The notes under the pieces are model-generated. The model did no database searches, had not been told where the DNA came from, and saw only the letters and a program-made list of their open reading frames with translations. The translations under genes were made by a program, and so were the position numbers. A DNA stretch of 64,000 nucleotides from Abditibacteriota bacterium (GTDB taxonomy: Bacteria > Armatimonadota > UBA5829): contig OW818698.1 of the NCBI GenBank assembly GCA_942493375.1, positions 1,813,455 to 1,877,454 of the forward strand, written 5' to 3'. Of the stretch, positions 200 to 57,485 are shown in pieces. Position 1 is the first letter of the stretch; every line of letters begins with the position of its first letter.

Positions 200-1790
200 T
201 ATACTTGATGGTCCCACATTAGTGGCCCATAAACTTCCTTCATCGATCATCGCAGAAGCAGGCGGAGCCGGTATGTTGCTGAACGAGAAGATCACGCGAC
301 TTGTCGCGTCCCTTGTTGGATGACTAGACCGTCCTCCGCCTTAGCTTTTGCAAATTGCTGTGGATCAAACTCCGATTGATCACGTGCTATTGCATATATC
401 AACTTTAGGAATTTTCGTGCCACAGCAATTCTGATTTGCCCTGTCTTTTTGCCTTGTGCTTTTACTTCTTTTGAATATGAGTCATATAAGCCACCTGTTT
501 TGATCTGAATTATGGCCATATGACAGATTATATATCTTGCCAGTGCGCGTCCACGCTTACTTATGTGTTTTTCTCCACTGTGTTTGCCACTGGAGACTTC
601 AAAAAGGTTCAATCCAATATATTTTTCAAGTGATGCATATGAATCATATTTGCTTATATCCCCGCACTCACCCAATAGACCTGCCACACTTACAACTCCC
701 ACGCGTGGCAGACTAAGCAGGCACTGCGCTATCTTGAGTGTCTGAAGGATCGCATCCATTTCACATTTCAGTTGTTCTCGGCGCAATTCGACCATCTCTA
801 AATAATTCAGTAAGGATACCATCGCATTATGTCGTGTCTGTTGACCCAGTTTTGCCGCAATAGAACGCTTTGCAGCCAGGGCCACCACTTCAGCTTTGTG
901 TGCCATTCTGCCGGAAGTCGCCTTTTTGAGCGTGCACCTTATACTAGTTATCCTCGAATTGGCTACTTCATCAGCATTTGTATACTTTCTAACTATACCT
1001 CTCACACTCTTGCAAACAGCGTCTTTGAAGATGTCTCTCAACTCTGGAAACCACACTTCCAGATGACATTGAAATTCGTTCCTGAGAGAAGTGCGTTTCT
1101 TAGTCAGAGAATCCCATTCTGCAATTGCGCAGCGTAGCTGCGCATATTCATCCGTCAGCTCCTGCACTTCCTGATAACATCCCTGCCAGACTAGATCAGC
1201 TATCACACGCGGATCCTTAAGATCATTCTTCTTGGGAGAGTTATCTCTCACTTCTTTGGTGCGTTTCACATGGTAAGGATTTACCTGGACTAACCTCAGT
1301 TCATTTCGTTGCACCCATTCCCTGAAACAAGTGCTGTATGGACCAGTCGGCTCGAAAGCAATCCAGAGATCGTAACCTGCATAAATCAGGATATTCACGA
1401 ATGATAGAAACTCTGTGTAACCATCGGCATTTTGTAAGGATCGGTGCATAATGGATTTCTCAGCATACCGGAAAGCACCGTAATCGATCCATCCCTTGCT
1501 GATGTCTACACCAACAACTATACCATTCACCGGATTTGGGACAGCTTGACAATCTTTCTTGTTAATAAGCATACTTTTCATGGTAGGTTCTCCTTGGTTT
1601 TTTTGTGCACATTAATAATACCAAGAAGCACCTACTACATTATAGGAAGCTGAATGCAGCGAATGACCTACTGTAAATCCTGCACATCAACTAACTGGGC
1701 CATATTCTAAGTTTGCATGTTATGCGCATTATGCAATTGTCTTTTCCGATAAATCTGCGTAAATCTGCGAAATCTGCGGATAATTATTTC
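200..1790 (-). mobile_element. IS110-family insertion sequence; boundaries approximate
   Basis: One long ORF at 292..1581 shows IS110/IS1111 transposase hallmarks. It has non-coding flanks of about 90 and 200 bp. I recognise no terminal inverted repeats, which is typical for IS110. The upstream non-coding end is the expected location of an IS110-type guide (bridge) RNA. Confidence 0.4.
292..1581 (-). CDS. IS110-family transposase (DEDD N-terminal domain, IS116/IS110/IS902 C-terminal domain)
   Basis: 429-aa ORF. The N-terminus 'GIVVGVDISKGWIDYGAF' matches the characteristic IS110 DEDD/RuvC-like motif. The product is basic. The ORF lies antisense to nothing else that is plausible. Confidence 0.88.
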   Translation of the reverse strand: MKSMLINKKDCQAVPNPVNGIVVGVDISKGWIDYGAFRYAEKSIMHRSLQNADGYTEFLSFVNILIYAGYDLWIAFEPTGPYSTCFREWVQRNELRLVQVNPYHVKRTKEVRDNSPKKNDLKDPRVIADLVWQGCYQEVQELTDEYAQLRCAIAEWDSLTKKRTSLRNEFQCHLEVWFPELRDIFKDAVCKSVRGIVRKYTNADEVANSRITSIRCTLKKATSGRMAHKAEVVALAAKRSIAAKLGQQTRHNAMVSLLNYLEMVELRREQLKCEMDAILQTLKIAQCLLSLPRVGVVSVAGLLGECGDISKYDSYASLEKYIGLNLFEVSSGKHSGEKHISKRGRALARYIICHMAIIQIKTGGLYDSYSKEVKAQGKKTGQIRIAVARKFLKLIYAIARDQSEFDPQQFAKAKAEDGLVIQQGTRQVA

Positions 1791-2708: not shown

Positions 2709-3535
2709 TGCTGACTAGAGTATTCAGACCCCTGTGGGCATTCGTATTCAGAGACTTCCACCTCACCCGGCGGTATATCCATTGGGAGGTAGTTAATTTA
2801 TTCTACGCAATGGTAAGTTCAGCAACAGTCGCCCTGATCGGAGTAGCATCCAATGATTTCCGCCTGACACTAAGATTGACACTTGGAGTATTGCTCTGGA
2901 ATTTCCTGAGCTCACTATTCCACGAAATAGCCAACTCAATCAGTTATGAGAGATGGGAAGGAACGTTAGAGTACACTTTTATGGCCCCAGTAAGCCGACT
3001 TCAGCATTTACTCGGTGTCAGCAGTTATGCGAGTGTGTATGCGTTATTGAGATCATTCGTCGTGCTTGGAGGGTTATATCTCTTTATACCAATGACTCTG
3101 CACGGTGCCAATATGGCAGGCGTTGTGCTGGTCATTGCAGTTGGCGGACTGGCATTTATGGGCCTGGGACTTATGGCTGCTGTGCTTCCACTGATGAGCC
3201 CCGAACGCGGAGCCAGCGCTACTGAGATTTTTCAAGGGGTGCTGTTGCTGGTTTCAGGTGTTTATTATCCGGTAGACGTCCTGCCCGGCTGGATACGTCC
3301 TCTCTCCGTAATATCCCCAGCCAAATATGCTCTCGACGCATGCAGGCAACTGATGGGAACCGATAACCCGGCTTCCACTAACGGCCACCTGGCAGGCGCC
3401 CCCCTGAGTTCCGTTGCTCCACAGTTGCTGGTATTGGCACTGATGGGAATTGTGCTGATTCCAGCTGGTCTGTATGTATTTGGTGTTGCTGAGAAGTGGG
3501 CCAAGAAGACGGGAAAGCTGAAGAGGACGGGATAG
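2708..3535 (+). CDS. ABC-2 family transporter permease
   Basis: The start overlaps the ATPase stop (ATAATG coupling). The product is a 275-aa hydrophobic multi-TM protein, the usual partner of the upstream ATPase. Confidence 0.8.
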   Translation: MLTRVFRPLWAFVFRDFHLTRRYIHWEVVNLFYAMVSSATVALIGVASNDFRLTLRLTLGVLLWNFLSSLFHEIANSISYERWEGTLEYTFMAPVSRLQHLLGVSSYASVYALLRSFVVLGGLYLFIPMTLHGANMAGVVLVIAVGGLAFMGLGLMAAVLPLMSPERGASATEIFQGVLLLVSGVYYPVDVLPGWIRPLSVISPAKYALDACRQLMGTDNPASTNGHLAGAPLSSVAPQLLVLALMGIVLIPAGLYVFGVAEKWAKKTGKLKRTG

Positions 3536-3540
3536 TGGAT

Positions 3541-3660
3541 TATAGCTAGATAAGACGAATAGGACTAATAAGACCCATAGGACATAGACGGCTATAGAAC
3601 GCAGTCTGTCCTATATGTCCTATTTGTCTTATTTGTCTTATATGTCTTATCTATGGGATT
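3541..3660. terminator. Long imperfect palindrome between convergent genes (probable bidirectional terminator)
   Basis: 'agataagacgaataggac ... gtcctatttgtcttat' arms with a 'ggacatag...ctatatgtcc' core. It lies between the 3' ends of the + permease gene and the - GHL10 gene. Confidence 0.45.
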
Positions 3661-5251: not shown

Positions 5252-5254
5252 CCT

Positions 5255-5280
5255 TTCCGTGTATTCAGTGTATTCCGTGG
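5255..5280. promoter_or_regulatory. Conserved 26-bp direct-repeat motif TTCCGTGTATTCAGTGTATTCCGTGG (copy 1)
   Basis: An identical 26-mer recurs at 35191..35216, with a partial copy at about 35045..35066. It contains the tandem GTGTATTC octamer and sits immediately 5' of the GHL10-like gene start. Confidence 0.35.
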
Positions 5281-5302
5281 TTCTCTAAAATATCCGCCTG
5301 CA

Positions 5303-18672: not shown

Positions 18673-18756
18673 GGCATTCTGAGGAACGAAGAATCTGCTT
18701 TTCCAATATATCTATGCTTAAGAACAGCAGATTCTTCACTGCGTTCAGAATGACAC
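18673..18756. repeat. Miniature inverted-repeat element, GTCATTCTGA family (full copy)
   Basis: Arms 'ggcattctgaggaacgaagaatctgct' and 'agcagattcttcactgcgttcagaatgac' around a ~30-bp spacer. Related copies occur at 27443, 31353, 41906, 44060 and 29569. Confidence 0.6.
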
Positions 18757-21115: not shown

Positions 21116-21182
21116 TATGTCCTCACACTCAACTGTTTAGCGCGCATTATTCATGATTGACGCGCTTGGTAAATAAAGCGGG

Positions 21183-24454: not shown

Positions 24455-25091
24455 AGGCTTAACCAATACCGAATCGGTATATGATCAAATCCGGGCAGAG
24501 AAGATAATTGCCATTGTCCGAGGTGTCGATGCTGAGACCGTTGTAAATGTCGCTGAAGCCCTATATGCAGGTGGATTGAGACTGCTGGAGATAACATGCA
24601 ATACTCCGGGTGTTATGGGGATTATACAACAAGTATCTCATGCAATGGACGGCAGGATGCTTGTCGGAGCTGGAACAGTAATAACTGAAGACCTGGCAAG
24701 ACAGGTGCATCGTGCCGGAGCAAAGTATGTGCTTGCTCCTGATGTAAACCCACAGGTGATCAAATATTGCCTGGCAAACGATGTAGCAGTCATCCCTGGA
24801 GCAACAACTGCAACCGAAGTCCTGACTGCCTACAGGCATGGGGCAAAGATCATCAAGCTGTTCCCTGCAGGCGCTCTTGGAGTAGATTATATAGAACAAC
24901 TCAGAGGCCCCATCAACAAGATCGACCTGATAGCTGTTGGAGGAGTAGAACTAAGCAACATGGCAAGTTTTATAAAAGCAGGCTGCATAGGCGTCGGACT
25001 GGGCAATTCCCTGATAAGAAAAGACCTGGTAGCATCCAGCAACTGGCAAGACCTCACACAATTGGCAAAGGAGTTCAAGGGAGAATTATGA
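24438..25091 (+). CDS. eda: KDPG/KHG aldolase (Eda)
   Basis: 'IIAIVRGVDAE...LLEITCNTPG...KLFPAGALG' blocks are typical of Eda. The start overlaps kdgK. Confidence 0.85.
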   Translation: MKLADKGLTNTESVYDQIRAEKIIAIVRGVDAETVVNVAEALYAGGLRLLEITCNTPGVMGIIQQVSHAMDGRMLVGAGTVITEDLARQVHRAGAKYVLAPDVNPQVIKYCLANDVAVIPGATTATEVLTAYRHGAKIIKLFPAGALGVDYIEQLRGPINKIDLIAVGGVELSNMASFIKAGCIGVGLGNSLIRKDLVASSNWQDLTQLAKEFKGEL

Positions 25092-25270
25092 GTTATGAAT
25101 TATGAATTATGAAAAGGGAAATGCTGAAGTCCGTATTCTTCATTCATAATTCAACAGTCATCCTTTTCCGAAAGAGTGGTTCTGGGGAGAATTATAAGGT
25201 ATGAGTTATGATTGATGAAAATGGAAAATGCCGAAGTCTGATTTCATAATTCATAATTCATAACTCATAC
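25083..25270. repeat. AT-rich heptamer tandem arrays (TGAATTA)n and an inverted copy
   Basis: 'gaattatgagttatgaattatgaattatgaa' is followed 90 bp later by 'ttcataattcataattcataact'. Related arrays occur at 41855..41889 and 52091..52177. Confidence 0.6.
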
Positions 25271-27306: not shown

Positions 27307-27442
27307 CCATTGCCCGCATTATTTATGATTAACTCAGCTTTTGCCCCTACTACCGGGTAAAAGCAAAGCTTGGTGAATAAAGCGGGCTAGCAGGAACATC
27401 AATAGTCCGGGCGTAAGTAGACATTAGCATATGTTTATTTGT

Positions 27443-27480
27443 GTCATTCTGAGCCCCCAAGTTGGGGGCTCAGAATGACA
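27443..27480. repeat. GTCATTCTGA-family palindrome (short copy)
   Basis: 'tgtcattctgagccccc aagtt gggggctcagaatgaca' is a perfect hairpin. Confidence 0.6.
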
Positions 27481-27494
27481 ATATTCCCATATTA

Positions 27495-27586
27495 CTCCTT
27501 CGAAAATAGAATATTTTCGTCCCTTCGTAGCGAGTCCGGCAGGTTTTCGCTGCAGGCGAAAATCGAGAGGACTCATGCTACGATTC
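27495..27586. repeat. 92-bp structured repeat element, copy 1 (possible small RNA or MITE)
   Basis: Identical over 92 bp to 57124..57215. Three nested hairpins: cgaaaata/tattttcg, ttttcgc/gcgaaaa and gtagcgagtcc/ggactcatgctac. Confidence 0.6.
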
Positions 27587-27879
27587 CTAAGTAACACGAC
27601 AGTTGTTACTTCATTTAGATAACTCGAAACCCCGAGTGGGCTACTGAACTCTTACGATAGAGAGTGTTTTGTGCTTCTCATATTATGATATCAGGAATAT
27701 TTTTCAGTTGAGGCATATAAGATGACTTAGTTGATGAATGTGTTCTTGCATTGGGCGATAATGCAGGAATCATTTCAGAGAAAGAAGAAAAGGACGTTAT
27801 TACCAAGATAGAAAGTAAATACCCATTCAGTTCTTGGGGACGCAAATATTGATAATTATCTGGAAACTAGGTGAATAAA

Positions 27880-29250
27880 ATGCGCTTTACGGTGTTCGTC
27901 GCGGCTGCCTTGCTTTTGTCCACTCTGACCTCCCAGTTGCAGGCCTCCAATAATGAAGGAGGCTTGCTGATAGTTATTCCTGCCAGTCTGGAATCGGCAT
28001 TGAAAGATTATGTGAAGTTCAGAAGCAGGCAGATGGCGGTACAGGTCAGGACTCTGGAGAAGATAGTAAAATCGACCAAAGGCTATGATGATCCGGAGAA
28101 GCTTAAGAGGTTTATATATGATCAGTGGAAGAGCAGCAAACTTAAGTACGTCCTGCTGGTTGGTGATGCTGACATCATGCCTGTCAGATATGTAGCCGGA
28201 GATCGTATAACGGAAGCTGCGTTCGATTATGCCTTTTTTCCCTCTGATTTGTATTACGCCGACCTCGCCAGGCAGGATCAACGGTTTGATGACTGGAATT
28301 CCAACAAGCAAGACTATCACGCTGGCTATTTTGGGGAAATCAATGGGGAAAAACATAAAAACAACAGGATCAACTACGATGACATTGACTACCGGCCTGA
28401 AATAGGTGTAGGTCGGTGGCCAGTGAACAGCAAGACTGAGATTATCACGATTGCCAGGAAGACCGTTGAGTTCGAAAAGATGATATCCAGGAAAAGATCA
28501 GCAAACAGTCGTAAAATAGCATTGATAGCCACGGGCGATTGGATCGACAGCCGCGGTATACTGGATGATCTAGCGTCGGGAATGGCAAAAGGATGGACGA
28601 CTGAGAGGCTGTATTACAAGGACAAATCCCGTGATGACAAAACTCCACCAGTTAACAACAATGAAGTGATCAAGATATTGAATAATGGAGTTAATATAAT
28701 GCTGCATGCCGGGCATGGCAATGATGGCACTTGGGACGGTTGCCTTTCGGTTGCAGATATAACCAAGATGAACAACAAATATTATACACCAGTCATGTTT
28801 TCAGTCGGATGCTACACTGCCAGATTCGCCACACTTCCTCCATATGAAAGCTACACTGATATAAATGGAGCGGAGCATGCAGGAACAATTGCTGGAGAGG
28901 TCTTCACAACACCTCCTCCTCCACCTGCGCCATATCAGACCGGGAAACACAATATGACAGGACTCGGCGAAGTCATGCTTCGTCAGGGTGCAAACGGTGC
29001 AGTTGCCTATATAGGATGCAACACTGGTGGCCAGGAATGCGCACTGACCTTTATGCAGGGATTTATGCATTCATTTAAAGCATCAAAAAACAAAAGGTTT
29101 GGGGATTGCTGGAAAGAAGCGGTGGAGTATTATTACGAAAAGGAGAATCTGGGTACGTTGAAACCGACAGACGACTGGTATCCTCCAGCCATATTCATGC
29201 AAGCCATGAAGTTTATGGTGTATGGTGACCCTTCGCTCAAGATGCCCTGA
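27880..29250 (+). CDS. Secreted clan-CD cysteine peptidase, C25 (gingipain)-like
   Basis: AGGTGA RBS and a signal peptide. His/Cys dyad context 'MLHAGHGNDGTWDG' then 'VMFSVGCYTARF' about 30 aa later. A propeptide-like N-terminal region. Confidence 0.5.
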   Translation: MRFTVFVAAALLLSTLTSQLQASNNEGGLLIVIPASLESALKDYVKFRSRQMAVQVRTLEKIVKSTKGYDDPEKLKRFIYDQWKSSKLKYVLLVGDADIMPVRYVAGDRITEAAFDYAFFPSDLYYADLARQDQRFDDWNSNKQDYHAGYFGEINGEKHKNNRINYDDIDYRPEIGVGRWPVNSKTEIITIARKTVEFEKMISRKRSANSRKIALIATGDWIDSRGILDDLASGMAKGWTTERLYYKDKSRDDKTPPVNNNEVIKILNNGVNIMLHAGHGNDGTWDGCLSVADITKMNNKYYTPVMFSVGCYTARFATLPPYESYTDINGAEHAGTIAGEVFTTPPPPPAPYQTGKHNMTGLGEVMLRQGANGAVAYIGCNTGGQECALTFMQGFMHSFKASKNKRFGDCWKEAVEYYYEKENLGTLKPTDDWYPPAIFMQAMKFMVYGDPSLKMP

Positions 29251-29632
29251 TCAGACAACACCAATCTCTTAAGTGTAATGAAACAGGTCCTTGATGGCGG
29301 GTGTGAACTCGATTTCGATCTCACACCCCAGGTTTCTGTGCTTCGGTAATCGAACGCACTGGAACAGCCTTGGTCAGATTCTTAAGAGTCTGTTTTGGTG
29401 CATAATTAGAAACTGCTGAAAGAAATATGAGTGGGAATAGGATGATATAGCTCTCAGGCGAGGAGAATGAGTATGGCAGAAAATCCTACAGACATAGATG
29501 AATATCTGGCAACCATACCCGATGACAAACGTGAAGCGCTTGAGGTAACAGTTCAGACTTGTGGGAATTTGTCATCCTGAGGAACGAATGATGACAATTT
29601 TACAAAGCTCGATATCTTCAAAGGAGCAATAT

Positions 29633-30712
29633 ATGAAAGTTTCAGTGTTAGGTAGTGGACAGATGGGGGAGAGTGTTATCCAACATCTGCTGCCCAGTCC
29701 TGAAGTACAAGAGATAACCGCATATGATGTAAATGCAGAGCGTCTGCAGGAACTCAAAGATAAATATGGTATACAGGTAACAGATGATCTGGACCAGGTG
29801 CTTTCGAATAAGGCAATAGAGCTGGTATTCATCGCTTCACCTAACCATACTCATAAGTCGCTGGCAATTCAATGTATGGAGGCCGGTAAGGCAGTACTGT
29901 GCGAAAAACCGATGGCTAATACATATGAAGACGCCAAGGAGCTGGTTGAGAAATCAGAGGAACTCGGTGCCTTCCTGCAAATTGGTTTTGAGTGCCGCTA
30001 TTCCAAGCTCTATACCACAGTAAAAGAATGGATTGATGCCGGGTTGCTTGGGGATGTCGTAAACACCCACACCAACTATGTCTCCAGTGAATTCCATCAC
30101 AAGGACAACTGGCGTAACAAAAAGGCAACCGGCGGCAGTATGTTCAACGAAAAGCTCTGCCACTATGTCGACCTCCCACGCTGGTGGATCGGTTCAAAGG
30201 TCAAAGACGTCATCTCGATCTGTTCACCGAATGTAATCCCGTACTATGAAGTCCGGGACAACTACCACACAACATATCGGTTTGAAAACGGAGCAGTCAG
30301 CCATCTGACCTTTATGATGATAGTCGGAGCTATGTTCCAGGGTGATCCTGACAAGAACGTAGTAGACCAGCAGCAGGGCGATGGGCACGAACTGCGGTGC
30401 TTGATAGTCGGCACAAAGGGAGCAGCTGAAGTTGATGTCTTCAAGCGCAGTATCAAGCGCTGGGAGTTCAGAGACGGCCCCAAATGCCTGGAAAGCCACT
30501 GGGTCGACACACAATACTATCCTGCAGAAGAAGAGCACAAATACACCCACAACACCAATGACCAGAGCCTGGATATTGTCAGACGGGTAGCTAACGGCCT
30601 GCCCCCAATGACCCCAGCCAGAGACTCCCTGGATTCCATGGCCCTCTGCTTCGCCGCAGAGCTTTCAGCAGACACAGGGGACATTGTTTCTATTGAAACA
30701 ATTTCTTTGTAA
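29633..30712 (+). CDS. Gfo/Idh/MocA-family NAD(P)-dependent oxidoreductase
   Basis: AAGGAG RBS. 'MKVSVLGSGQMG' Rossmann N-terminus, and 'EKP' plus an 'FECRYS' dimerisation region. The upstream in-frame extension from 29561 reads through a repeat element. Confidence 0.8.
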   Translation: MKVSVLGSGQMGESVIQHLLPSPEVQEITAYDVNAERLQELKDKYGIQVTDDLDQVLSNKAIELVFIASPNHTHKSLAIQCMEAGKAVLCEKPMANTYEDAKELVEKSEELGAFLQIGFECRYSKLYTTVKEWIDAGLLGDVVNTHTNYVSSEFHHKDNWRNKKATGGSMFNEKLCHYVDLPRWWIGSKVKDVISICSPNVIPYYEVRDNYHTTYRFENGAVSHLTFMMIVGAMFQGDPDKNVVDQQQGDGHELRCLIVGTKGAAEVDVFKRSIKRWEFRDGPKCLESHWVDTQYYPAEEEHKYTHNTNDQSLDIVRRVANGLPPMTPARDSLDSMALCFAAELSADTGDIVSIETISL

Positions 30713-30733
30713 TTGATAATTGACAATGGACAA
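30701..30733. repeat. (AATTGAT)n-type heptamer repeat at the 3' end of the oxidoreductase gene
   Basis: 'aattgataattgacaatggacaattgataatgg'. The same motif forms an inverted pair at 39763..39860. Confidence 0.5.
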
Positions 30734-30854
30734 TTGATAATGGAAACGGTAAACTCGTTCGTCCTGAACTTGTCGAAGGACGCGTGGAGAACAGAACCAT
30801 TGCTCGCACACGATTGCAAATCGTGTGCATAATATAAAAACTAGGAGTAATTAA

Positions 30855-31352: not shown

Positions 31353-31430
31353 GTCATCCTGAAGAATGAAGGATCTGCTTTTTCCTTCTTGGATATGTTG
31401 AAAGCAGATCCTTCGTTCCTCAGGATGACA
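31353..31430. repeat. GTCATTCTGA-family inverted-repeat element (full copy, 'gtcatcctga' variant)
   Basis: Arms 'tgtcatcctgaagaatgaaggatctgcttt' and 'aaagcagatccttcgttcctcaggatgaca'. Confidence 0.6.
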
Positions 31431-33760: not shown

Positions 33761-33879
33761 CCGCAGATTTCACAGATTTACGCAGATTAGGGAAAACAGT
33801 CAAGGCTGGCAGATGTATTGCCAGCCTTATTGTGTAATGCTCATATTATAATCACCATAATCTGCGAAATCTGCGGATA
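33761..33879. repeat. ~119-bp MITE-like element with (AATCTGCG)n terminal inverted repeats
   Basis: Left 'ccgcagatttcacagatttacgcagatt' and right 'aatctgcgaaatctgcgg' are inverted. The internal palindrome is 'ggctggcagatgtattgccagcc'. Solo direct-repeat copies occur at 1752..1780 and 35103..35130. Confidence 0.55.
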
Positions 33880-33909
33880 CTCTATTAAATTTGGCTATGG
33901 AGACGAATA

Positions 33910-34977: not shown

Positions 34978-35190
34978 AAAGCTATCAATCATGAATGCGG
35001 ACTAGTGGACAGTAAACATCCACTCATATGTATACTGTCCACCCAATTTTTCGTGTATTCAGTGCAAATGCGGTGTCATTTTTACATGTGGTTGTGTTCC
35101 CAAATCTGCGTAAATCTGCGAAATCTGCTGATGATTTAATACCCCAGTCTCCAATTAGCATCCATCTATATTCTTACATCCCAGCTTGTT

Positions 35191-35216
35191 TTCCGTGTAT
35201 TCAGTGTATTCCGTGG
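35191..35216. promoter_or_regulatory. Conserved 26-bp direct-repeat motif TTCCGTGTATTCAGTGTATTCCGTGG (copy 2)
   Basis: Identical to 5255..5280. It lies ~105 bp upstream of the FGGY kinase start. Confidence 0.35.
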
Positions 35217-35320
35217 TTATTTCCCCAGCTTCTCCCTTCCAATATCCGTCCAGCCCGTATATAATAGTTTGCAGACTCTCGCGCAATGTTTAAAATAACA
35301 CGCGATAACCTATAGGGGTT

Positions 35321-37346: not shown

Positions 37347-37510
37347 CTCACATTATTCACTAAGCCTCACTTTTATCCGGAAGAATGGGCAAAAGTTGAG
37401 TTGGTCATGAATAACGAGGGCTAGTGCATAGCGAAGCGAGATTTGTTATGGCGATTTTTGGGATGCGGGCAACCATACTTGTGGGTATGCCCGTATCTGT
37501 ATTTTTTCGC

Positions 37511-39404: not shown

Positions 39405-39762
39405 CTCATTGGGAACGTGTTTTCCCCAGCAGAATTGCCGGTCTAATAGTAGGTTATTGCGCTGAATAATATGTGGATATCCTGTGCTGTACTATCCCGT
39501 ACAATATCGGAAAAGCATAGACAGAGAAATCGAGAATATAAAACAGGCTTGAGAGACACACAAATCCTATGCCAACGACGTTATATGGGTAGGCAATTCA
39601 GGATAGCTTAAGTAGTAACATAACTTGGCAGGATTGCATCGTAGGCCTGATGATGGTTCAAACGGAAGATTACAGTTGGTGAAACTCGCTTAACTATAAT
39701 TATAGGTTATCCAGCAGCATTTGTCTAGTGCTGCGCAGTATTATTTGTAATATAACACTTAC

Positions 39763-39860
39763 AATTGATAATTGATAATTGATAATTGACAATGAACAAG
39801 AGAAAAGAATCCAAAACCCGGTCTTTTTAGTTGTCCATTGTCAATTATCAATTGTCCATT
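39763..39860. repeat. Inverted (AATTGAT)4 heptamer arrays forming a long hairpin, and the terminator of the downstream minus-strand GH gene
   Basis: 'caattgataattgataattgataattgacaatg' ... 'ccattgtcaattatcaattgtccatt'. Confidence 0.55.
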
Positions 39861-41889: not shown

Positions 41890-41905
41890 CTCCATTCATA
41901 AATTT

Positions 41906-41940
41906 TGTCATTCTGAACGCAGTGAAGAATCTGCTTTTCC
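41906..41940. repeat. GTCATTCTGA-family half element
   Basis: 'tgtcattctgaacgcagtgaagaatctgcttttcc' matches the left arm of the 18673 copy. Confidence 0.5.
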
Positions 41941-44002: not shown

Positions 44003-44059
44003 TCCTCACGATTGGACATTGAACGCTTATACTGAAAGAAGTCAGTGCCTCGATAATCT

Positions 44060-44156
44060 TGTCATTCTGAATGAAATGAAGAATCTCAAGCCTGTTAAAA
44101 GCAGTTGTAAATGTAAAACATTTACACTAGATTCTTCATTGCATTCAGAATGACAT
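44060..44156. repeat. GTCATTCTGA-family inverted-repeat element (full copy)
   Basis: Arms 'tgtcattctgaatgaaatgaagaatct' and 'agattcttcattgcattcagaatgaca', with an internal palindrome 'gtaaatgtaaaacatttacac'. Confidence 0.6.
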
Positions 44157-52068: not shown

Positions 52069-52090
52069 AAACAGGAGGAGAAGGGAAAGT

Positions 52091-52177
52091 ATGAACGATG
52101 AATTATGAATGATGAAAACGGAAATGGGAAACAGGAAATTATGAATGTTGAATTATGAATTATGAAATAGAAACACC
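52091..52177. repeat. TGAANNN heptamer arrays in the hisC promoter region
   Basis: 'gaattatgaatgatgaaaa...ggaaattatgaatgttgaattatgaattatgaaatag'. The ORF 52056..52250 is its translation artefact. Confidence 0.55.
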
Positions 52178-52295: not shown

Positions 52296-54299
52296 CTAAA
52301 AAACCACAAGCTGATATCCATTGACTTCCGGAACTATAACCGACAGGTATTCTCCTTCGTCTGTGAAATGAATGCTCTCTCCTGATGGTGCAAGGTAGGC
52401 CTTGGTGATAGTCTTCTCATCTTTCTTCAACTGGACTTGAACATTGCGCAGGCAGATAGGCTCTTCAATAACCTGGGCCATTCCTCTGGTTTCCGGGCAG
52501 TAGCAGAGCAGGTGAACCAGTCTATCCCCTTGCTTGCTATATGCAGTGGTTACCTGTCCGAATGATGGCATTCCAGTAACTTTGATTAGTGGGTTAGGAA
52601 GCAACCTGGTGAGTAGATTTCTGAACAGAGTCTTGTGTGCCGGCACTGCATGTGCATAGTATCCTGCAAATATCGGGAAGCTGATATAGATTATGTTTCT
52701 GGTCTGCACAACTGCAGGTCTGCCGGTCTGTTTCTCAGGAGGAGTGTAGAAGTATTCGTGATTCCAGTCCCATTTACCGAAGTTATCATAGGGTTGAATT
52801 ACACTCGCCAGCACCTGAGCATCATCACCAGCCTGAACCGCTGCTGCCTGCAGATAAACTGCTGTTGGCATATCAGGAACGCCTTCGGATACTTCAGGTT
52901 CTGCTGTAAAGTATGTTGGATCAAACGGCTCTTTGCCTTGGTAGATAACACTCTCCGGAGCAAGCGCAAACTTAGTCCTATCAGCATTAAACCCACCATA
53001 ACCAGAACAAATGACCGATCCGCCACTATCCAGAAATGCATTTACCCGTGCCTGCAAGTCATCGGTCAGTGTCGATGCATCCGGAAGCACCAGCACCTTG
53101 TAACCAGAGAAGTCCGTGCTGCCATCGGTGATATCGAACTGCTGCTTAAGCTCCGAGAGCATCCTGGATGCACCTTTGATTGGATTTATCGCATCCCAGC
53201 CACACGGATCTATCTGAGGGGACCAGTCAGCAGGAATCCACCTGTCACCCAGCCATGGTTCCAGGACCAGGATATCTGCTTGAGGTTTGGAATCATAGGT
53301 CCAGGGCTCCAGCTTTTTGACTTCGGAGTAAGCACTCCCCATCACATCATAGACTGCCGAAGTCAGCTTTCCAACCGGATGCAGATGATCTCCCACAGAA
53401 CACGTTCCGCCATTTGCCAGGGAATAGTAATGGTCATATATCAGAGATGGCACAGTTCTGAGACCACCAAAATCTCCCCAATCGCGCAGGAACCTGCCGG
53501 TCATTGTAAAGTAGGGTTTATTCAAGCTCCTTGCATAACGAATGGCAAACGGCAGAAAGTCATATCCCCATCCACCGGTTGGCAGAACTTCAATCTCCAG
53601 ATGCGTAGGCTGAGATTTATAAGGCATTCCGTTGTAAAACAAATAAATAGAATCCCCTACTCTATCCCTGACATTTCGGGTTACTTCATCACAGAACTCA
53701 TGGTTAGCCATGATCGCATACTGGGTTACCTGGGCAGGGTCCATAACATCCATTCCCAAAACTCTCATCTTGTCCAGGCACTCCGAACCATAACAAGGCG
53801 TGTTGGTAATGCAATCAAGGAACAGCCCATCCACAGGATACTTATCCAGCACTTCATCGATCATTGATATAAGGTGTTCGCGGTATGAAGTATTGCGGCA
53901 CATCTGGCGATTAAAATTGCTCATATCCGCAATATTGATCACCTTGCCCTGCTGGTCCACTTTGCACCATTCACGGTGATACGCTGCATGGTCCTGATCT
54001 AACCCGGCATTGAAGTAAGCAGCTACTTTGATCCCGAGTTTATGACAAGCTTCCACCATTCCACCAAGCATATCAACTTTCAGCGCCGGATGAACAGTTC
54101 CGATAGAAGTCGGATAATAAGCAAAACCTATGTTACAACGTGCAAAGACAGTAATGTAGTCAACATTTGCTTCGCAAAGCGTTCGTGCAAACTCATCCGG
54201 GTCAAAACTCTCCCCCAGATCATATGCAGACGGCATAGTATGAAAATCCAGATGAATAGCCCTCTTCGGAAAACCCAAGTCAACCAAATCCGCCTCCAA
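52296..54299 (-). CDS. GHL6-family putative glycoside hydrolase, paralog 2
   Basis: 667 aa. 'FPKRAIHLDFHTMPS...TGRFLRDWGDFGG...SVGDHLHPVGKL'. Highly similar to the adjacent 54412..56397. Confidence 0.6.
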   Translation of the reverse strand: MEADLVDLGFPKRAIHLDFHTMPSAYDLGESFDPDEFARTLCEANVDYITVFARCNIGFAYYPTSIGTVHPALKVDMLGGMVEACHKLGIKVAAYFNAGLDQDHAAYHREWCKVDQQGKVINIADMSNFNRQMCRNTSYREHLISMIDEVLDKYPVDGLFLDCITNTPCYGSECLDKMRVLGMDVMDPAQVTQYAIMANHEFCDEVTRNVRDRVGDSIYLFYNGMPYKSQPTHLEIEVLPTGGWGYDFLPFAIRYARSLNKPYFTMTGRFLRDWGDFGGLRTVPSLIYDHYYSLANGGTCSVGDHLHPVGKLTSAVYDVMGSAYSEVKKLEPWTYDSKPQADILVLEPWLGDRWIPADWSPQIDPCGWDAINPIKGASRMLSELKQQFDITDGSTDFSGYKVLVLPDASTLTDDLQARVNAFLDSGGSVICSGYGGFNADRTKFALAPESVIYQGKEPFDPTYFTAEPEVSEGVPDMPTAVYLQAAAVQAGDDAQVLASVIQPYDNFGKWDWNHEYFYTPPEKQTGRPAVVQTRNIIYISFPIFAGYYAHAVPAHKTLFRNLLTRLLPNPLIKVTGMPSFGQVTTAYSKQGDRLVHLLCYCPETRGMAQVIEEPICLRNVQVQLKKDEKTITKAYLAPSGESIHFTDEGEYLSVIVPEVNGYQLVVF

Positions 54300-54411: not shown

Positions 54412-56397
54412 TTATTCAAACACAACTAGCTGGTATCCATTAACCTCAGGGACAGTCACAACCAGATAATCTCCCTGCTCTGTGATAGTTAGGCTCTCCC
54501 CGGATATAGCCAGAAATGCTTTAGTTATAGCCTTCCCATCCTTCTTCAGTTTGACCTCGATATTATGAGCACATATTCGCTCTTCTATAACCTGGGCCAT
54601 TCCTCTTGCTTCCGGGCAGTAACAGATCAAATGGACAAGTCTTTCACCCTTATTGGTGTATGCAGAAGTAACCTGACCGAATGAAGGCATTCCCGTAACT
54701 TCCACAATCGGATCCGGCAGCAATCTAGTAAGCAGGTTCTTAAGCAATGCCTTGTGAGCCGGCACTGCATGGGCATAGTATCCCGCAAACATGGGGAAGC
54801 TGACATAGATTATATTGCCAACCTGCATCGCAGCTGGTCTGCCTGTCTCTTTCTCCGGAGGGGTGTAGAAGTATTCGTGGTTCCAATCCCATTTACCGAA
54901 GTTGTCGTAGGGCTGAATGACATTTGCCAGCACTTTGGCGCCTTTACCAGCCTGCACGGCTGTTGCCTGCTTATAGACGGCTGTTGGCATGTCAGGAACA
55001 CCATCGGCTACTTCCGGTTCAGCAGTGAAATAAGTGGGATCGAACGGCTCTTTGCCTTCGTATATCACACCCTCAGGGGCAAGTGCGAACTTGGTACGCT
55101 CAGCATCAAATCCACCATAACCCGAGCAGATCACCGATCCACCTTTTGCCAGGAATGCATTGACTTTTGCCAGCATGTCACTCGTGAGGGTAGTAGAGTC
55201 CGGCAGGACCAGCGTTTTGTATGGAGCAAAATCAATGCTGCCATCGCTGACATCGAACTGCTGCTTGAGTTCGGAAAGCATTCTGGTAGCTCCCCTAACA
55301 GGATCCAGCGCTTCCCATCCTGCTATATCATTCGGCATTCCCCAGGTAGCAGGAAAATCTCTCAATCCTGGTTCCACAACCAGAATCTCTGTCTGAGCTT
55401 TTGAACCATATGTCCACGGCTCAATCTTCTCAATGTCAGAATATATGTCGCCTATCAAGTCATAAACTGCAGGTTCAAGTTTTCCAACTGGATGCAGATG
55501 GTCACCAACTGAACAGGTGCCGGAGTTAGCCAATGAATAATAAAGGTCGTATTCCAGCGATGCGGCTGAACGCAAACCGCCAAAATCTCCCCAGCTCCTG
55601 TGGAACCTGCCGGTCATCGTGAAGAATGGTTTGGGTTTCGTGCGGACATAGCGGATAACAAATGGCAGATAATCATATCCCCATCCACCGGTAGGGAGGA
55701 CTTCAATCTCTATATGTGTTGGCTGGATATCATATGACATACCATTATAGATTATGTTGATATCTCCGGCTTTTGCCTGGACCTGGCTTGTAACTTCGTG
55801 GCAAAACTCTTGATTCGCCATGCCGGCATACTTGACGACTTGAGCCGGATCCATCACGTCCATACCCAGGGCTCTCATCTTGTCCAGACATTCCGAACCA
55901 TAACACGCATGAGATGTCATGCAATCCAGGAATATCCCGTCAACCGGATACATATCCAGCACTTCATCGATCATTGATGTCAGGTGCTCTCTGTAACCGG
56001 TATTGTAGCACATGAGACGGTTGAAGTTCCCCATCTCGGCTATCTTGATCACTCTGCCCTGCTCATCAACTTTGGTCCATTCGCGATGGTTTATGGTGTG
56101 CTCGTGATCAAGACCGGCATTAAAATAGGCTGCTACTTTAATACCAACTTTGTGACAGGCCTCAACCATCCCGCCCAGCATATCAGACTTCATATGAGGA
56201 TGGGGGATTCCGATTGTTGTCGGATAGTATGCAAAACCTATATTGCACCGTGCAAAGACAGTGATATAGTCAACTTTCGCCTCTTTCAATGTCTGAGCAA
56301 ACTCTTCGGGATTGAAGTCGTCACTCAGGTTGTAAGGAGATGGCATTGTATGGAAATCCAGATGTATTGCTCTTTTAGGAAATTCAGAGTTAATCAC
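54412..56397 (-). CDS. GHL6-family putative glycoside hydrolase, paralog 3 (tandem duplicate)
   Basis: 661 aa. Collinear similarity to 52296..54299 across its whole length. Confidence 0.6.
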   Translation of the reverse strand: MINSEFPKRAIHLDFHTMPSPYNLSDDFNPEEFAQTLKEAKVDYITVFARCNIGFAYYPTTIGIPHPHMKSDMLGGMVEACHKVGIKVAAYFNAGLDHEHTINHREWTKVDEQGRVIKIAEMGNFNRLMCYNTGYREHLTSMIDEVLDMYPVDGIFLDCMTSHACYGSECLDKMRALGMDVMDPAQVVKYAGMANQEFCHEVTSQVQAKAGDINIIYNGMSYDIQPTHIEIEVLPTGGWGYDYLPFVIRYVRTKPKPFFTMTGRFHRSWGDFGGLRSAASLEYDLYYSLANSGTCSVGDHLHPVGKLEPAVYDLIGDIYSDIEKIEPWTYGSKAQTEILVVEPGLRDFPATWGMPNDIAGWEALDPVRGATRMLSELKQQFDVSDGSIDFAPYKTLVLPDSTTLTSDMLAKVNAFLAKGGSVICSGYGGFDAERTKFALAPEGVIYEGKEPFDPTYFTAEPEVADGVPDMPTAVYKQATAVQAGKGAKVLANVIQPYDNFGKWDWNHEYFYTPPEKETGRPAAMQVGNIIYVSFPMFAGYYAHAVPAHKALLKNLLTRLLPDPIVEVTGMPSFGQVTSAYTNKGERLVHLICYCPEARGMAQVIEERICAHNIEVKLKKDGKAITKAFLAISGESLTITEQGDYLVVTVPEVNGYQLVVFE

Positions 56398-56733
56398 AAA
56401 TTGCCTCCATTGGCTTTCAATCCGCTTTATTCACCAAGTGTAAATGCAGAGCATTTAAGTATAATGCGGGTCGGTATTTACATGTTGTATTGCTTTTCAA
56501 GTGCTATTGTCAAGGTTATTTTGAATTATTGCATCCAGGGACGTACGACAGAGGGTTTGTTTGGGGTATTCCCCCGGCAAAGATATTGCAGGGGGAATAA
56601 GAATCCAGCTAACCCGCATTATTCACCATACTTCGCTTTTGGCCGGCAGTAGGGACAAAAACTGAAAGTATAAATACAGAGTATTTATACCGTCAATCAT
56701 GAATAATGCGGGCTAATAGAGCCACCGTTAGGA

Positions 56734-57114
56734 CTATCGTGTTACAGCAATAGCCTCTATCTCTATCTTCACACCTTTTGGAAGAGCCTGGACCTGGACT
56801 GTGGACCTTGCCGGTGGATCCTGTGGGAAATACTTACCGTAGAGCTCATTGACACGCGCAAAGTCCGCCAGGTCTGTGAGAAATATCGTTGTCTTAACTA
56901 CATCAGTCATCTCCAGACCCTCAGCTCTGAGCACCCCCTGTATATTATCCAGCACTGTTCTTGTCTGCGATGTAATGTCAACAGCTTCGATTTGACCAGA
57001 TGCTGCATCTATGGGGATTTGACCGGATATAAACAGGAAGCCATTTGCTTTTATTGCCTGGGAATAAGGACCTATGGCTGCTGGAGCCTGAGAGGTTTGG
57101 ATTACAACTTTCAT
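56734..57114 (-). CDS. ridA: RidA/YjgF-family reactive-intermediate deaminase
   Basis: 'ISGQIPID' and conserved C-terminal blocks. 126 aa. Confidence 0.8.
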   Translation of the reverse strand: MKVVIQTSQAPAAIGPYSQAIKANGFLFISGQIPIDAASGQIEAVDITSQTRTVLDNIQGVLRAEGLEMTDVVKTTIFLTDLADFARVNELYGKYFPQDPPARSTVQVQALPKGVKIEIEAIAVTR

Positions 57115-57123
57115 TATTTCATC

Positions 57124-57215
57124 CTCCTTCGAAAATAGAATATTTTCGTCCCTTCGTAGCGAGTCCGGCAGGTTTTCGCTGCAGGCGAAAATCGAGAGGA
57201 CTCATGCTACGATTC
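57124..57215. repeat. 92-bp structured repeat element, copy 2 (in the ridA 5' region)
   Basis: 100 % identical to 27495..27586. Confidence 0.6.
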
Positions 57216-57251
57216 TTAAATAAATGTGAGTATACAGTTGATCAAGACTGG

Positions 57252-57485
57252 TTAAGATATCATCTTTTGAATCTCATCAATACCAGGAACTCTACCTGCT
57301 ACTTTAACTTCCCCATTTACCACTAGCGCAGGGGTAGTCATAACGCCGAATTTCATTATCTCCCGTATATCTGAAACTTTTTCAATTTCATACTCAATTC
57401 CGGACTTATCGGCGGCTTCTTTTGTTAGTTCTGTTAGTTTCGTACATTTAGCACATCCGGTGCCCAGTATCTGCAGTTTAATCAT
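57252..57485 (-). CDS. Thioredoxin-fold 'redox-active disulfide protein 2'-like small protein
   Basis: 77 aa. 'GTGCAKC' CxxC motif and a 'TTPALVVNGEV' block. Confidence 0.65.
   Translation of the reverse strand: MIKLQILGTGCAKCTKLTELTKEAADKSGIEYEIEKVSDIREIMKFGVMTTPALVVNGEVKVAGRVPGIDEIQKMIS

Follow-up and report, generated by a model that had tools for sequence, protein, structure and literature searches.

Why is a 92-bp piece of intergenic DNA present twice, letter for letter, at places about 30 kb apart? The question is raised by a stretch of contig OW818698.1 from an uncultivated member of the Armatimonadota (64,000 nucleotides, positions 1,813,455 to 1,877,454 of the forward strand; this whole stretch is called the window hereafter). 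An earlier note on the window had recognized the pair and had attributed it either to recent copying of a mobile miniature element or to strong selection on a small RNA or cis-regulatory leader. The two stretches are copies of a previously undescribed, lineage-restricted interspersed repeat of about 93 nt, non-coding and non-autonomous, which is designated here as element A. Copies of this element have been gained and lost between related genomes, and the element is probably an insertion element that is orientation-specific and settles immediately 5' of AGGA sites resembling the Shine-Dalgarno (SD) sequence, that is, a small mobile DNA and not a conserved regulatory RNA.

The 92-mer at nt 27495-27586 recurs at nt 57124-57215 with 0 mismatches. 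It occurs exactly twice in the window, against a shuffled expectation of 0, and the flanking DNA of the two copies is unrelated; both the identical pair and its unrelated surroundings were correctly described in the earlier note. Likeness extends past the 92-mer (100 nt at 98%), and a covariance model of the family (R1, see below) gave a 96-nt match at each place, while a search of the whole window with this model, filters off, returned only these two copies. Two points had been missed before: the informative strand of the element is the minus strand, on which it reads GGAATCGTAGC...TATTTTCGAAGGAG, and on that strand the element terminates in an SD sequence. The two copies were delimited as follows.

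27495..27590, minus strand: copy 1, element A, core of a long-form copy; exact 92-mer and covariance-model match
57124..57219, minus strand: copy 2, element A, short form; exact 92-mer, covariance-model score of 124 bits over model positions 1-96

Copies of element A and their placement relative to genes

The gene-strand consensus of the element is (T)TAGGAATCGTAGCATGAGTCC...GGACTCGCTACGAAGGGACGAAAATATTCTATTTTCGAAGGAG. Its core 20-mer, GGACTCGCTACGAAGGGACG, gave 22 matches in JGI metagenome contigs, 1 of them by chance and 21 real; 16 of the real matches were located on 46-329-kb contigs of one metagenome (Ga0118677) and the other five came from Ga0073936. The 20-mer was absent from 185,579 species-representative genomes and had no match in viral contigs, and plasmid and phage collections contained no match to the element. 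A genome scan anchored on the neighbouring 661-aa hydrolase protein revealed no relative, exact-sequence look-ups returned no record for RidA, the GH32-like protein or the C25 peptidase, and no description of such a repeat in Armatimonadota was found in the literature. The host is placed in the Armatimonadota by its Rho, which is about 82% identical to proteins of metagenome-assembled genomes of that phylum.

When 21 non-redundant copies, most of them retrieved by the exact 20-mer, were aligned, the mean column identity was 94%. Covariance model R1, built from these 21 copies, detected 26 full copies in the 259 kb of DNA searched, including six that lacked the exact 20-mer; the identity of such copies was 80-93%. 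A suggestion that copies are more conserved between genomes than coding DNA was dropped, as the identity of genes (80-94%) was similar to that of the copies free of the 20-mer. As in other small mobile repeats, the sequence is small, non-coding and multi-copy (26 copies), and filled and empty alleles exist in related genomes, with three polymorphic sites. A dispersed multi-copy family with presence or absence of the element at three sites, and with tandem arrays, supports the proposal of recent copying of a mobile miniature element.

At 16 of the 24 distinct sites, a long open reading frame (ORF) begins 6-10 nt past the terminal GGAG, or 52 nt past it at one site, and its strand is invariably that of the element. 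Similarity among the copies stops at this GGAG, and the spacers and start codons that follow are gene-specific. Ten of the downstream proteins were assigned by Pfam as DHH phosphoesterase, Ro60/TROVE, CheB methylesterase, TPP enzyme, GH4, AAT-like, HlyD adaptor, URO-D-like, ABC-2 permease and AIM24 proteins; further downstream genes were those for RidA, a Gfo/Idh/MocA oxidoreductase and a zinc-ribbon ORF, and another ORF was taken, from its sequence alone, for a putative GNAT acetyltransferase. No functional theme is common to these genes.

The gene for the TPP enzyme (L011; L numbers denote the contigs of related DNA) is preceded by a second leader, a T-box with a score of 117.6 bits, and the order is T-box leader, 38 nt, element, 9 nt and the ATG.

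L011 1330-1592, minus strand: T-box leader upstream of the TPP-enzyme gene, on an Armatimonadota-related contig

Since a complete T-box leader precedes the element, the copy in L011 lies inside the 5'-untranslated region (5'-UTR), downstream of another regulator. The gene itself may be read as an acetolactate synthase gene, Pfam giving only TPP-enzyme domains. In L005, a 158-nt tRNA-model match (3125-3282, plus strand), possibly a Y-RNA with a tRNA-like domain, was observed just upstream of the Rsr (Ro60) orthologue; the Ro60/TROVE gene is at 3567, and the element copy is situated between the match and the rsr start codon.

The remaining 8 of the 24 sites have no gene directly downstream. They are mostly between convergent genes, with palindromes of other repeat families following within tens of bases, and four of them, including that of copy 1, are occupied by a long form of about 160 nt carrying a 5' extension. 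The long form in L008 (5122-5281) is 97.5% identical to nt 27653-27494 of the window over 160 nt. The extension, called ext, had 4 occurrences in all DNA examined, each directly 5' of element A and never apart from it.

The surroundings of the two window copies correspond to these two kinds of site and comprise the following features.

57252..57485, minus strand: Thioredoxin_3-family gene, upstream of copy 2 (ORF; Pfam)
56734..57114, minus strand: ridA, which copy 2 serves; 126 aa, Ribonuc_L-PSP family (ORF; Pfam of the L001/L003 orthologue)
27591..27655, minus strand: ext, 5' extension by which the long form is defined, about 60-65 nt (alignment with L008)
27442..27480, no strand assigned: palindrome of the GTCATTCTGAG family, directly 3' of copy 1 on the minus strand; a separate repeat family, not part of element A

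Copy 2 is located between the thioredoxin-like gene and ridA, and its 3' GAAGGAG(G) is the SD sequence of ridA, the terminal GGAG being 9 nt before the ATG; it does abut the ridA start, as had been noted. Since the thioredoxin gene, copy 2 and ridA are co-directional, copy 2 is either intercistronic or in a 5'-UTR. Copy 1 has no gene behind it; the ORF begun by its GGAG-TAAT-ATG is only 6 codons long and runs into the palindrome. The copy and the adjoining palindrome, whose neighbourhood the earlier note had also pointed out, are both inside the intergenic gap at nt 27307-27879, which is flanked by a divergent peptidase C25 gene and a convergent GH32-like gene. Palindromes related to this one trail other long-form or gene-less copies.

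Gain and loss between relatives and the ends of the element

Two sites of the window have counterparts in related DNA at which the state of the element differs. In the spacer between the thioredoxin-like gene and ridA, the window carries element A, whereas L001 and L003 carry repeat B, which is unrelated to A; the thioredoxin-like protein of L001 and L003 is identical to that of the window, and the DNA of the region is about 89-92% identical. The other site is upstream of the gene for the Gfo/Idh/MocA oxidoreductase, where the window is empty.

29600..29635, plus strand: empty insertion site before the Gfo/Idh/MocA gene, ACAAAGCTCGATATCTTC/AAAGGAGCAATATATG, the slash marking the point of insertion (alignment of relatives)

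At the point marked, L026 has a copy of element A and reads CGATATCTTC-GAAAGAATCG...(element)...CTATTTTC-TGAGGAG-CAGTATATG, versus CGATATCTTC-AAAGGAG-CAATATATG in the window and CAATATTTCT-ACAGGAG-CAGTATATG in L029. The site is filled in L026 only and is empty in the window, L029, L030 and L027. Identity of the Gfo gene is 94% between the window and L029 and 91% both between the window and L026 and between L026 and L029, while L030 is about 80% identical to these three; the L027 protein is 82% identical to that of the window, and the L027 gene was aligned by BLASTN only to that of L026 (77%). Because the more distant L030 is empty, and L027 is empty too, the difference is attributed to an insertion in the L026 lineage. 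The element was inserted directly 5' of the gene's own AGGAG, with the AGGAG retained and the spacer and ATG unchanged.

A larger difference between the relatives involves copy 1.

27427..29598, no strand assigned: lineage-specific segment of 2.17 kb; within it are the palindrome, copy 1, ext and the peptidase C25 gene (synteny, BLAST, junctions, Pfam)

This segment is missing between the GH32-like and Gfo genes in L026 and L030, and it is bounded by palindromes of the GTCATYCTGAG type.

The ends of element A were compared in the copy alignment. No terminal inverted repeats were found, the 5' end (GGAATCGTAGCATGAG) being unrelated to the reverse complement of the 3' end (CTCCTTCGAAAATAG). In 21 of 21 copies, GA closes the 13 nt that precede TCGTAGC, mostly as part of TTAGGA or TAAGA; the GA is preceded by A (17 of the 21) and T (15-16 of the 21), and a TAAGA-like motif also precedes the long form. 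The consensus of this 5' flank, TTTCTTAGGA, resembles the 3' end of the element, TTTCGAAGGA. A search for target-site duplications, which the earlier note had proposed, found none: the 5' flank matched the copy's own 3' end at 6.14 of 11 positions and the 3' ends of other copies at 6.22 of 11 (permutation p = 0.79), and in the absence of any excess likeness to its own 3' end the flank is not a target-site duplication. The empty Gfo sites likewise resemble the 3' end of the element (TATTTCTACAGGAG vs TATTTTCTGAGGAG). Head-to-tail arrays were present in L006 (three copies, repeating every 89 nt) and in L014 (two copies), one AAGGA being common to each junction. Stem-loops are close to both ends, P1/P2 beginning 3 nt from the 5' junction and P3 finishing 5 nt from the 3' junction.

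Taken as the product of an insertion element, this arrangement could arise as follows. Element A would integrate in one orientation beside T-rich...AGGA sites that are SD-like and similar to its own 3' end, the exact junction being uncertain by 2-3 bases, and its terminal ...TTTTCGAAGGA would leave or recreate a working ribosome-binding site. Such insertions would be tolerated because the terminus of the element itself keeps the ribosome-binding site, and the ...GAAGGA of a resident copy would serve as a new target, so that head-to-tail arrays could form. Once in place, the element would be co-transcribed as a strongly folded segment of the 5'-UTR with the SD sequence unpaired, any effect on expression being secondary. 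A single-strand mechanism of the HUH/Y1 kind (IS200/IS605 or RAYT-like), or another site-specific mechanism, may fit better than a DDE-type MITE (miniature inverted-repeat transposable element), because terminal inverted repeats and target duplications are absent, hairpins are present at both ends, a motif is conserved in the 5' flank and the 5' palindrome is headed by GTAG.

Several points weigh against this reading. The similarity of the copies is inflated by the way in which most of them were retrieved, namely by the exact 20-mer. The difference at ridA is not a simple insertion, as the whole spacer differs, including about 30 nt 5' of element A and GATGA 3' of it, and at the Gfo site the left junction (CTTC-GAAAGA) is off at 2-3 positions from a clean insertion after AAAGGA or ACAGGA. 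Placement before start codons could stem from selection acting on random insertions and not from a choice of target. No transposase or recombinase is linked to the element, and no Y1 type was detected in 283 kb, which is only a fraction of the genomes; tblastn searches of the same 283 kb with TnpA and RAYT sequences gave nothing below E = 0.1, which is uninformative in so small a sample.

Fold, coding capacity and alternative explanations

The stems named in the earlier note are real but are not all nested as it had proposed: a long imperfect stem, P1, encloses P2 (ttttcgc/gcgaaaa), and P3 (cgaaaata/tattttcg) lies beside them. A fold of this kind, with free energies of -36 to -40 kcal/mol (z about -3.7), would suit a selected cis-regulatory RNA leader, such as a riboswitch, a thermosensor or a protein-binding operator, with translation of ridA and the other genes under its control, e.g. 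through its GGA motifs and the hairpin on the SD side; so would the gene orientation directly ahead of the SD sequence, one compensatory change and several G-U changes in the stems, the UUUUCG/CGAAAA arms common to P2 and P3, through which alternative pairings are possible, and the circumstance that ridA and the TPP enzyme, if it is an acetolactate synthase, both touch branched-chain amino-acid metabolism. The element is more stable than shuffled sequences on both strands (z = -3.8 on the minus strand and -4.9 on the plus strand), and folding energy alone therefore contains no strand information; G-U versus A-C changes in the stems, about 9 vs 5 when counted by eye, are not decisive as a test of the strand. 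The Rfam scan called for in the note gave 0 family matches at the gathering score over the whole window, only chance-level matches, none covering the element meaningfully, at E <= 10 over nt 27380-27700, and only T-box and tRNA matches outside the element at the element loci. Among 28 proposed pairs, with 97.4% of cells paired, several G-U changes were seen but only 1 pair had a compensatory change (G-C to A-U), and 56 of 500 shuffles reached the observed covariation score, in a test of low power because the copies are 94% identical. With the columns of the retrieval 20-mer set aside, variation is as frequent at paired as at unpaired positions (odds ratio 1.04, p = 1), and hypervariable positions are confined to the P2 apical loop and the termini. 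The multiply mutated copies in L011 and L020 lose the predicted fold without compensation, and P2 is disrupted in the most diverged copy. Moreover, the SD sequence is mostly unpaired in the predicted folds of intact copies, by which sequestration of the GGAG was rejected; the downstream genes lack a common function, one third of the copies have no downstream gene at all, and close relatives lack the element in their orthologous ridA and Gfo leaders. A selected leader of this kind therefore seems unlikely, and the earlier proposal of strong selection on a small RNA or leader finds no support: many copies without significant covariation are part of what the note itself had named as pointing away from a functional RNA.

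Transcription or translation of the element by itself was considered in three further forms. A portable promoter that brings transcription to the downstream gene, of the kind called a putative mobile promoter, is distinctly improbable: a highly similar sequence is indeed found upstream of non-homologous genes in one genome, as in the operational definition of that class (PMC3575422), and some copies are in divergent intergenic regions 150-250 nt from the neighbouring gene, but several others lie between co-directional genes with short gaps, the element in L011 is downstream of a complete T-box leader and hence within the transcript, and no sigma-70-type promoter was found on the gene strand of either window copy by a simple consensus scan, a weak test that was not tuned to this phylum and whose models leave the promoter types of Armatimonadota outside. 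Copy 1, with ext and the palindrome, is most unlikely to be a stand-alone small-RNA gene from which the gene-proximal copies are derived. The four long-form copies do share the 5' extension and a short 3' extension, none is before a gene, and a strong palindrome about 10-40 nt behind each of them could end a transcript; however, the palindromes have no U-tract, neither within ext nor upstream of it was a sigma-70-like promoter found on the strand of the element, the DNA upstream of ext is not conserved between copies, and Rfam is silent here as well. With neither a U-tract nor a terminator-like call on its strand, a terminator function of the element was also rejected. A small protein can hardly be the selected product. 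The 27-codon frame MSPLDFRLQRKPAGLATKGRKYSIFEG..., starting from an ATG in the P1 bulge 8 nt past the 5' AGGA, which is at SD distance, is open in 22 of 25 copies and would allow a leader peptide or MIRU-type coupling; the independent 3' variants CTGAGGAG and GAATGAGG each give an in-frame TGA just before the downstream gene, and in several copies the stop codon adjoins the following start or overlaps with it (TAATG in L004, TTGA in L012 and TGA-AATA-ATG at ridA). Against this, distinct substitutions were 13 synonymous and 40 non-synonymous, a synonymous share of 0.245 versus a random expectation of 0.247, and they fell on codon positions 21/16/16 without an excess at the third; two copies have an in-frame stop at codon 10, one has no ATG and at least one (L007) is frameshifted, and an open frame of 81 nt is ordinary by chance and would be inherited by descent in copies so similar. 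The coding mini-ORF was rejected on these counts.

The preferred reading, that of a non-autonomous insertion element, can be carried a step further, if only tentatively and with considerable doubt. Element A may be a mobile DNA that targets the SD region itself, recognizing T-rich...AGGA(G), possibly through pairing with its own 3' end, inserting in one orientation and rebuilding the ribosome-binding site from its own terminus. It might in this way place a common structured leader with four GGA-type motifs before unrelated genes, one that the host could later use as a shared post-transcriptional control point, e.g. for a CsrA-like protein or an RNase.

Relation to known repeats and to other repeats of the region

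Judged by description, the closest analogues of element A appear to be REP2 of Neisseria and the putative mobile promoters. REP2 (contact-regulated element) and the IR-A/IR-B repeats of Borrelia plasmids are interspersed repeats of 120-150 bp with about 20-26 copies, which have no terminal inverted repeats, contain two internal inverted repeats for which folding in RNA is predicted and are immediately upstream of the ORFs of different genes, carrying the ribosome-binding site; REP2 also carries a promoter and the ATG (PMC3184786). Similarly, element A is about 93 nt long, is present in at least 16 copies, has the P1/P2 and P3 hairpins, and is found ahead of start codons, its GGAG serving as the SD sequence. 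Unlike REP2, it has no sigma-70 promoter detectable by a simple scan, and the ATG and spacer are gene-specific and outside the element; tandem arrays, gene-less copies and filled and empty alleles, all seen here, are not mentioned for REP2 in the review (PMC3184786). REP2 belongs to a different phylum and is likened to element A by description and not by sequence homology. Putative mobile promoters, described by Matus-Garcia, Nijveen and van Passel (2012), are near-identical non-coding sequences before unrelated genes in one genome, sometimes 100% identical over 100 bp, which spread by an unknown mechanism and form a heterogeneous class defined by position (PMC3575422). To qualify, sequences upstream of non-homologous genes in a single genome need an identity of at least 80% along 50 nt or more (PMC3575422), and element A falls within this definition, with 94% mean column identity before unrelated genes on contigs of one metagenome. 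It differs from that class in that it reaches the SD sequence, appears promoterless and also occurs away from gene starts.

Resemblance to REP/RAYT and IS200/IS605-derived elements lies in the lack of terminal inverted repeats and target duplication, the hairpins, a P1 that starts with GTAGC, a short conserved motif on one flank and, probably, orientation-specific insertion; a GTAG head on the palindrome is common to many REPs (PMC2817692). REPs, however, are 20-40 nt long and GC-rich, are headed by GTAG or GTGG, accompany a RAYT gene that the same repeats flank, usually form inverted pairs and favour convergent gene ends, whereas element A is 93 nt long with about 47% GC and three hairpins, is single or in direct tandem, never in inverted pairs, and is mostly at gene starts. 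Despite its GTAGC head it is therefore not assigned to REP/REPIN; no RAYT-like ORF was present in the 283 kb, a sample too small to be informative on this point. MIRUs, reportedly described by Supply et al. in 1997, are said to be units of 40-100 bp in direct tandem arrays, intergenic in operons and oriented with the flanking genes, and are said to contain small ORFs whose ends abut neighbouring stop and start codons. Their arrays occupy fixed loci as variable-number tandem repeats, whereas element A is mostly single and dispersed, shows insertion polymorphism and has a mini-ORF without coding constraint. ERIC/IRU and Correia elements, cited also in PMC3575422, are small intergenic repeats co-transcribed with their neighbours, whose RNA hairpins can alter mRNA stability or expression depending on orientation; they are MITE-like, with terminal inverted repeats, a TA target duplication and insertions in both orientations. 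Element A differs from these and from DDE-type MITEs in having neither terminal inverted repeats nor target duplications.

Several other repeat families share these intergenic regions. Two copies of repeat B in the window are close to the copies of element A.

56614..56716, plus strand: copy of repeat B, downstream of ridA; a family unrelated to A
27320..27385, minus strand: partial copy of repeat B near copy 1 (sequence match)

The partial B beside copy 1 shows the intergenic regions here to be mosaics of several repeat families. Repeat B is about 103 nt long with a GCTTTTACC...GGTAAAAGC hairpin, and also occurs at nt 37353-37399 and about nt 21137-21181 of the window and at 2532-2634 and 3081-3183 of L001; in L001 and L003 two inverted B copies bracket ridA, and in the window the upstream one is replaced by A. 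GTCATYCTGAG-type palindromes were located at nt 27442-27480, 29569-29597, 18724-18755, 41901-41932, 44055-44086 and 44124-44155, and a related palindrome is at the start of contig L029. Gene-less short-form copies of element A (L009/L013, L018, L022 and L023/L025) have a conserved palindromic repeat, GAACGAAGGATCTGCTTT...AAAGCAGATCCTTC, just 3' of them, which opens with the element-end motif GAAGGA and of which the window contains a fragment at about nt 31400-31419.

Arrays of heptamer direct repeats (AATTATG/AATGATG, AATTGAT/AATTGAC) are present upstream of genes at nt 25084-25229, 30711-30753, 39749-39805 and 52087-52176, and recall the intergenic arrays of the heptamer TAACTGA reported for Beggiatoaceae (PMC4679880). 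Tandem nonamers of the AAATCTGCG type were found at nt 1751-1785, 33848-33882 and 35102-35136, and an exact 29-nt repeat, TTTCCGTGTATTCAGTGTATTCCGTGGTT, at nt 5254-5282 and 35190-35218, about 30 kb apart. Beside ridA, nt 52296-54299 and 54412-56397 (minus strand) contain adjacent paralogous GHL6/fucosidase-like hydrolase genes with about 72% DNA identity, a tandem gene duplication. An IS110-family transposase gene (DEDD_Tnp_IS110 and Transposase_20) occupies nt 292-1581 (minus strand), and the covariance model detected no copy of element A nearby.

These findings carry a caution for repeat-rich genomes of uncultivated bacteria, in which perfectly conserved, well-folding intergenic DNA does not amount to evidence of a functional RNA. 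The unusual aspect of element A is its precise, oriented placement before SD sequences, together with filled and empty alleles in close relatives, by which the chemistry of insertion becomes directly testable. If the proposed course of insertion is true, a small mobile element lands precisely before ribosome-binding sites and leaves these intact, and a selfish repeat can thereby spread across 5'-UTRs while costing the host little. Unrelated genes would then suddenly gain the same structured leader, which would be raw material for new post-transcriptional regulons.

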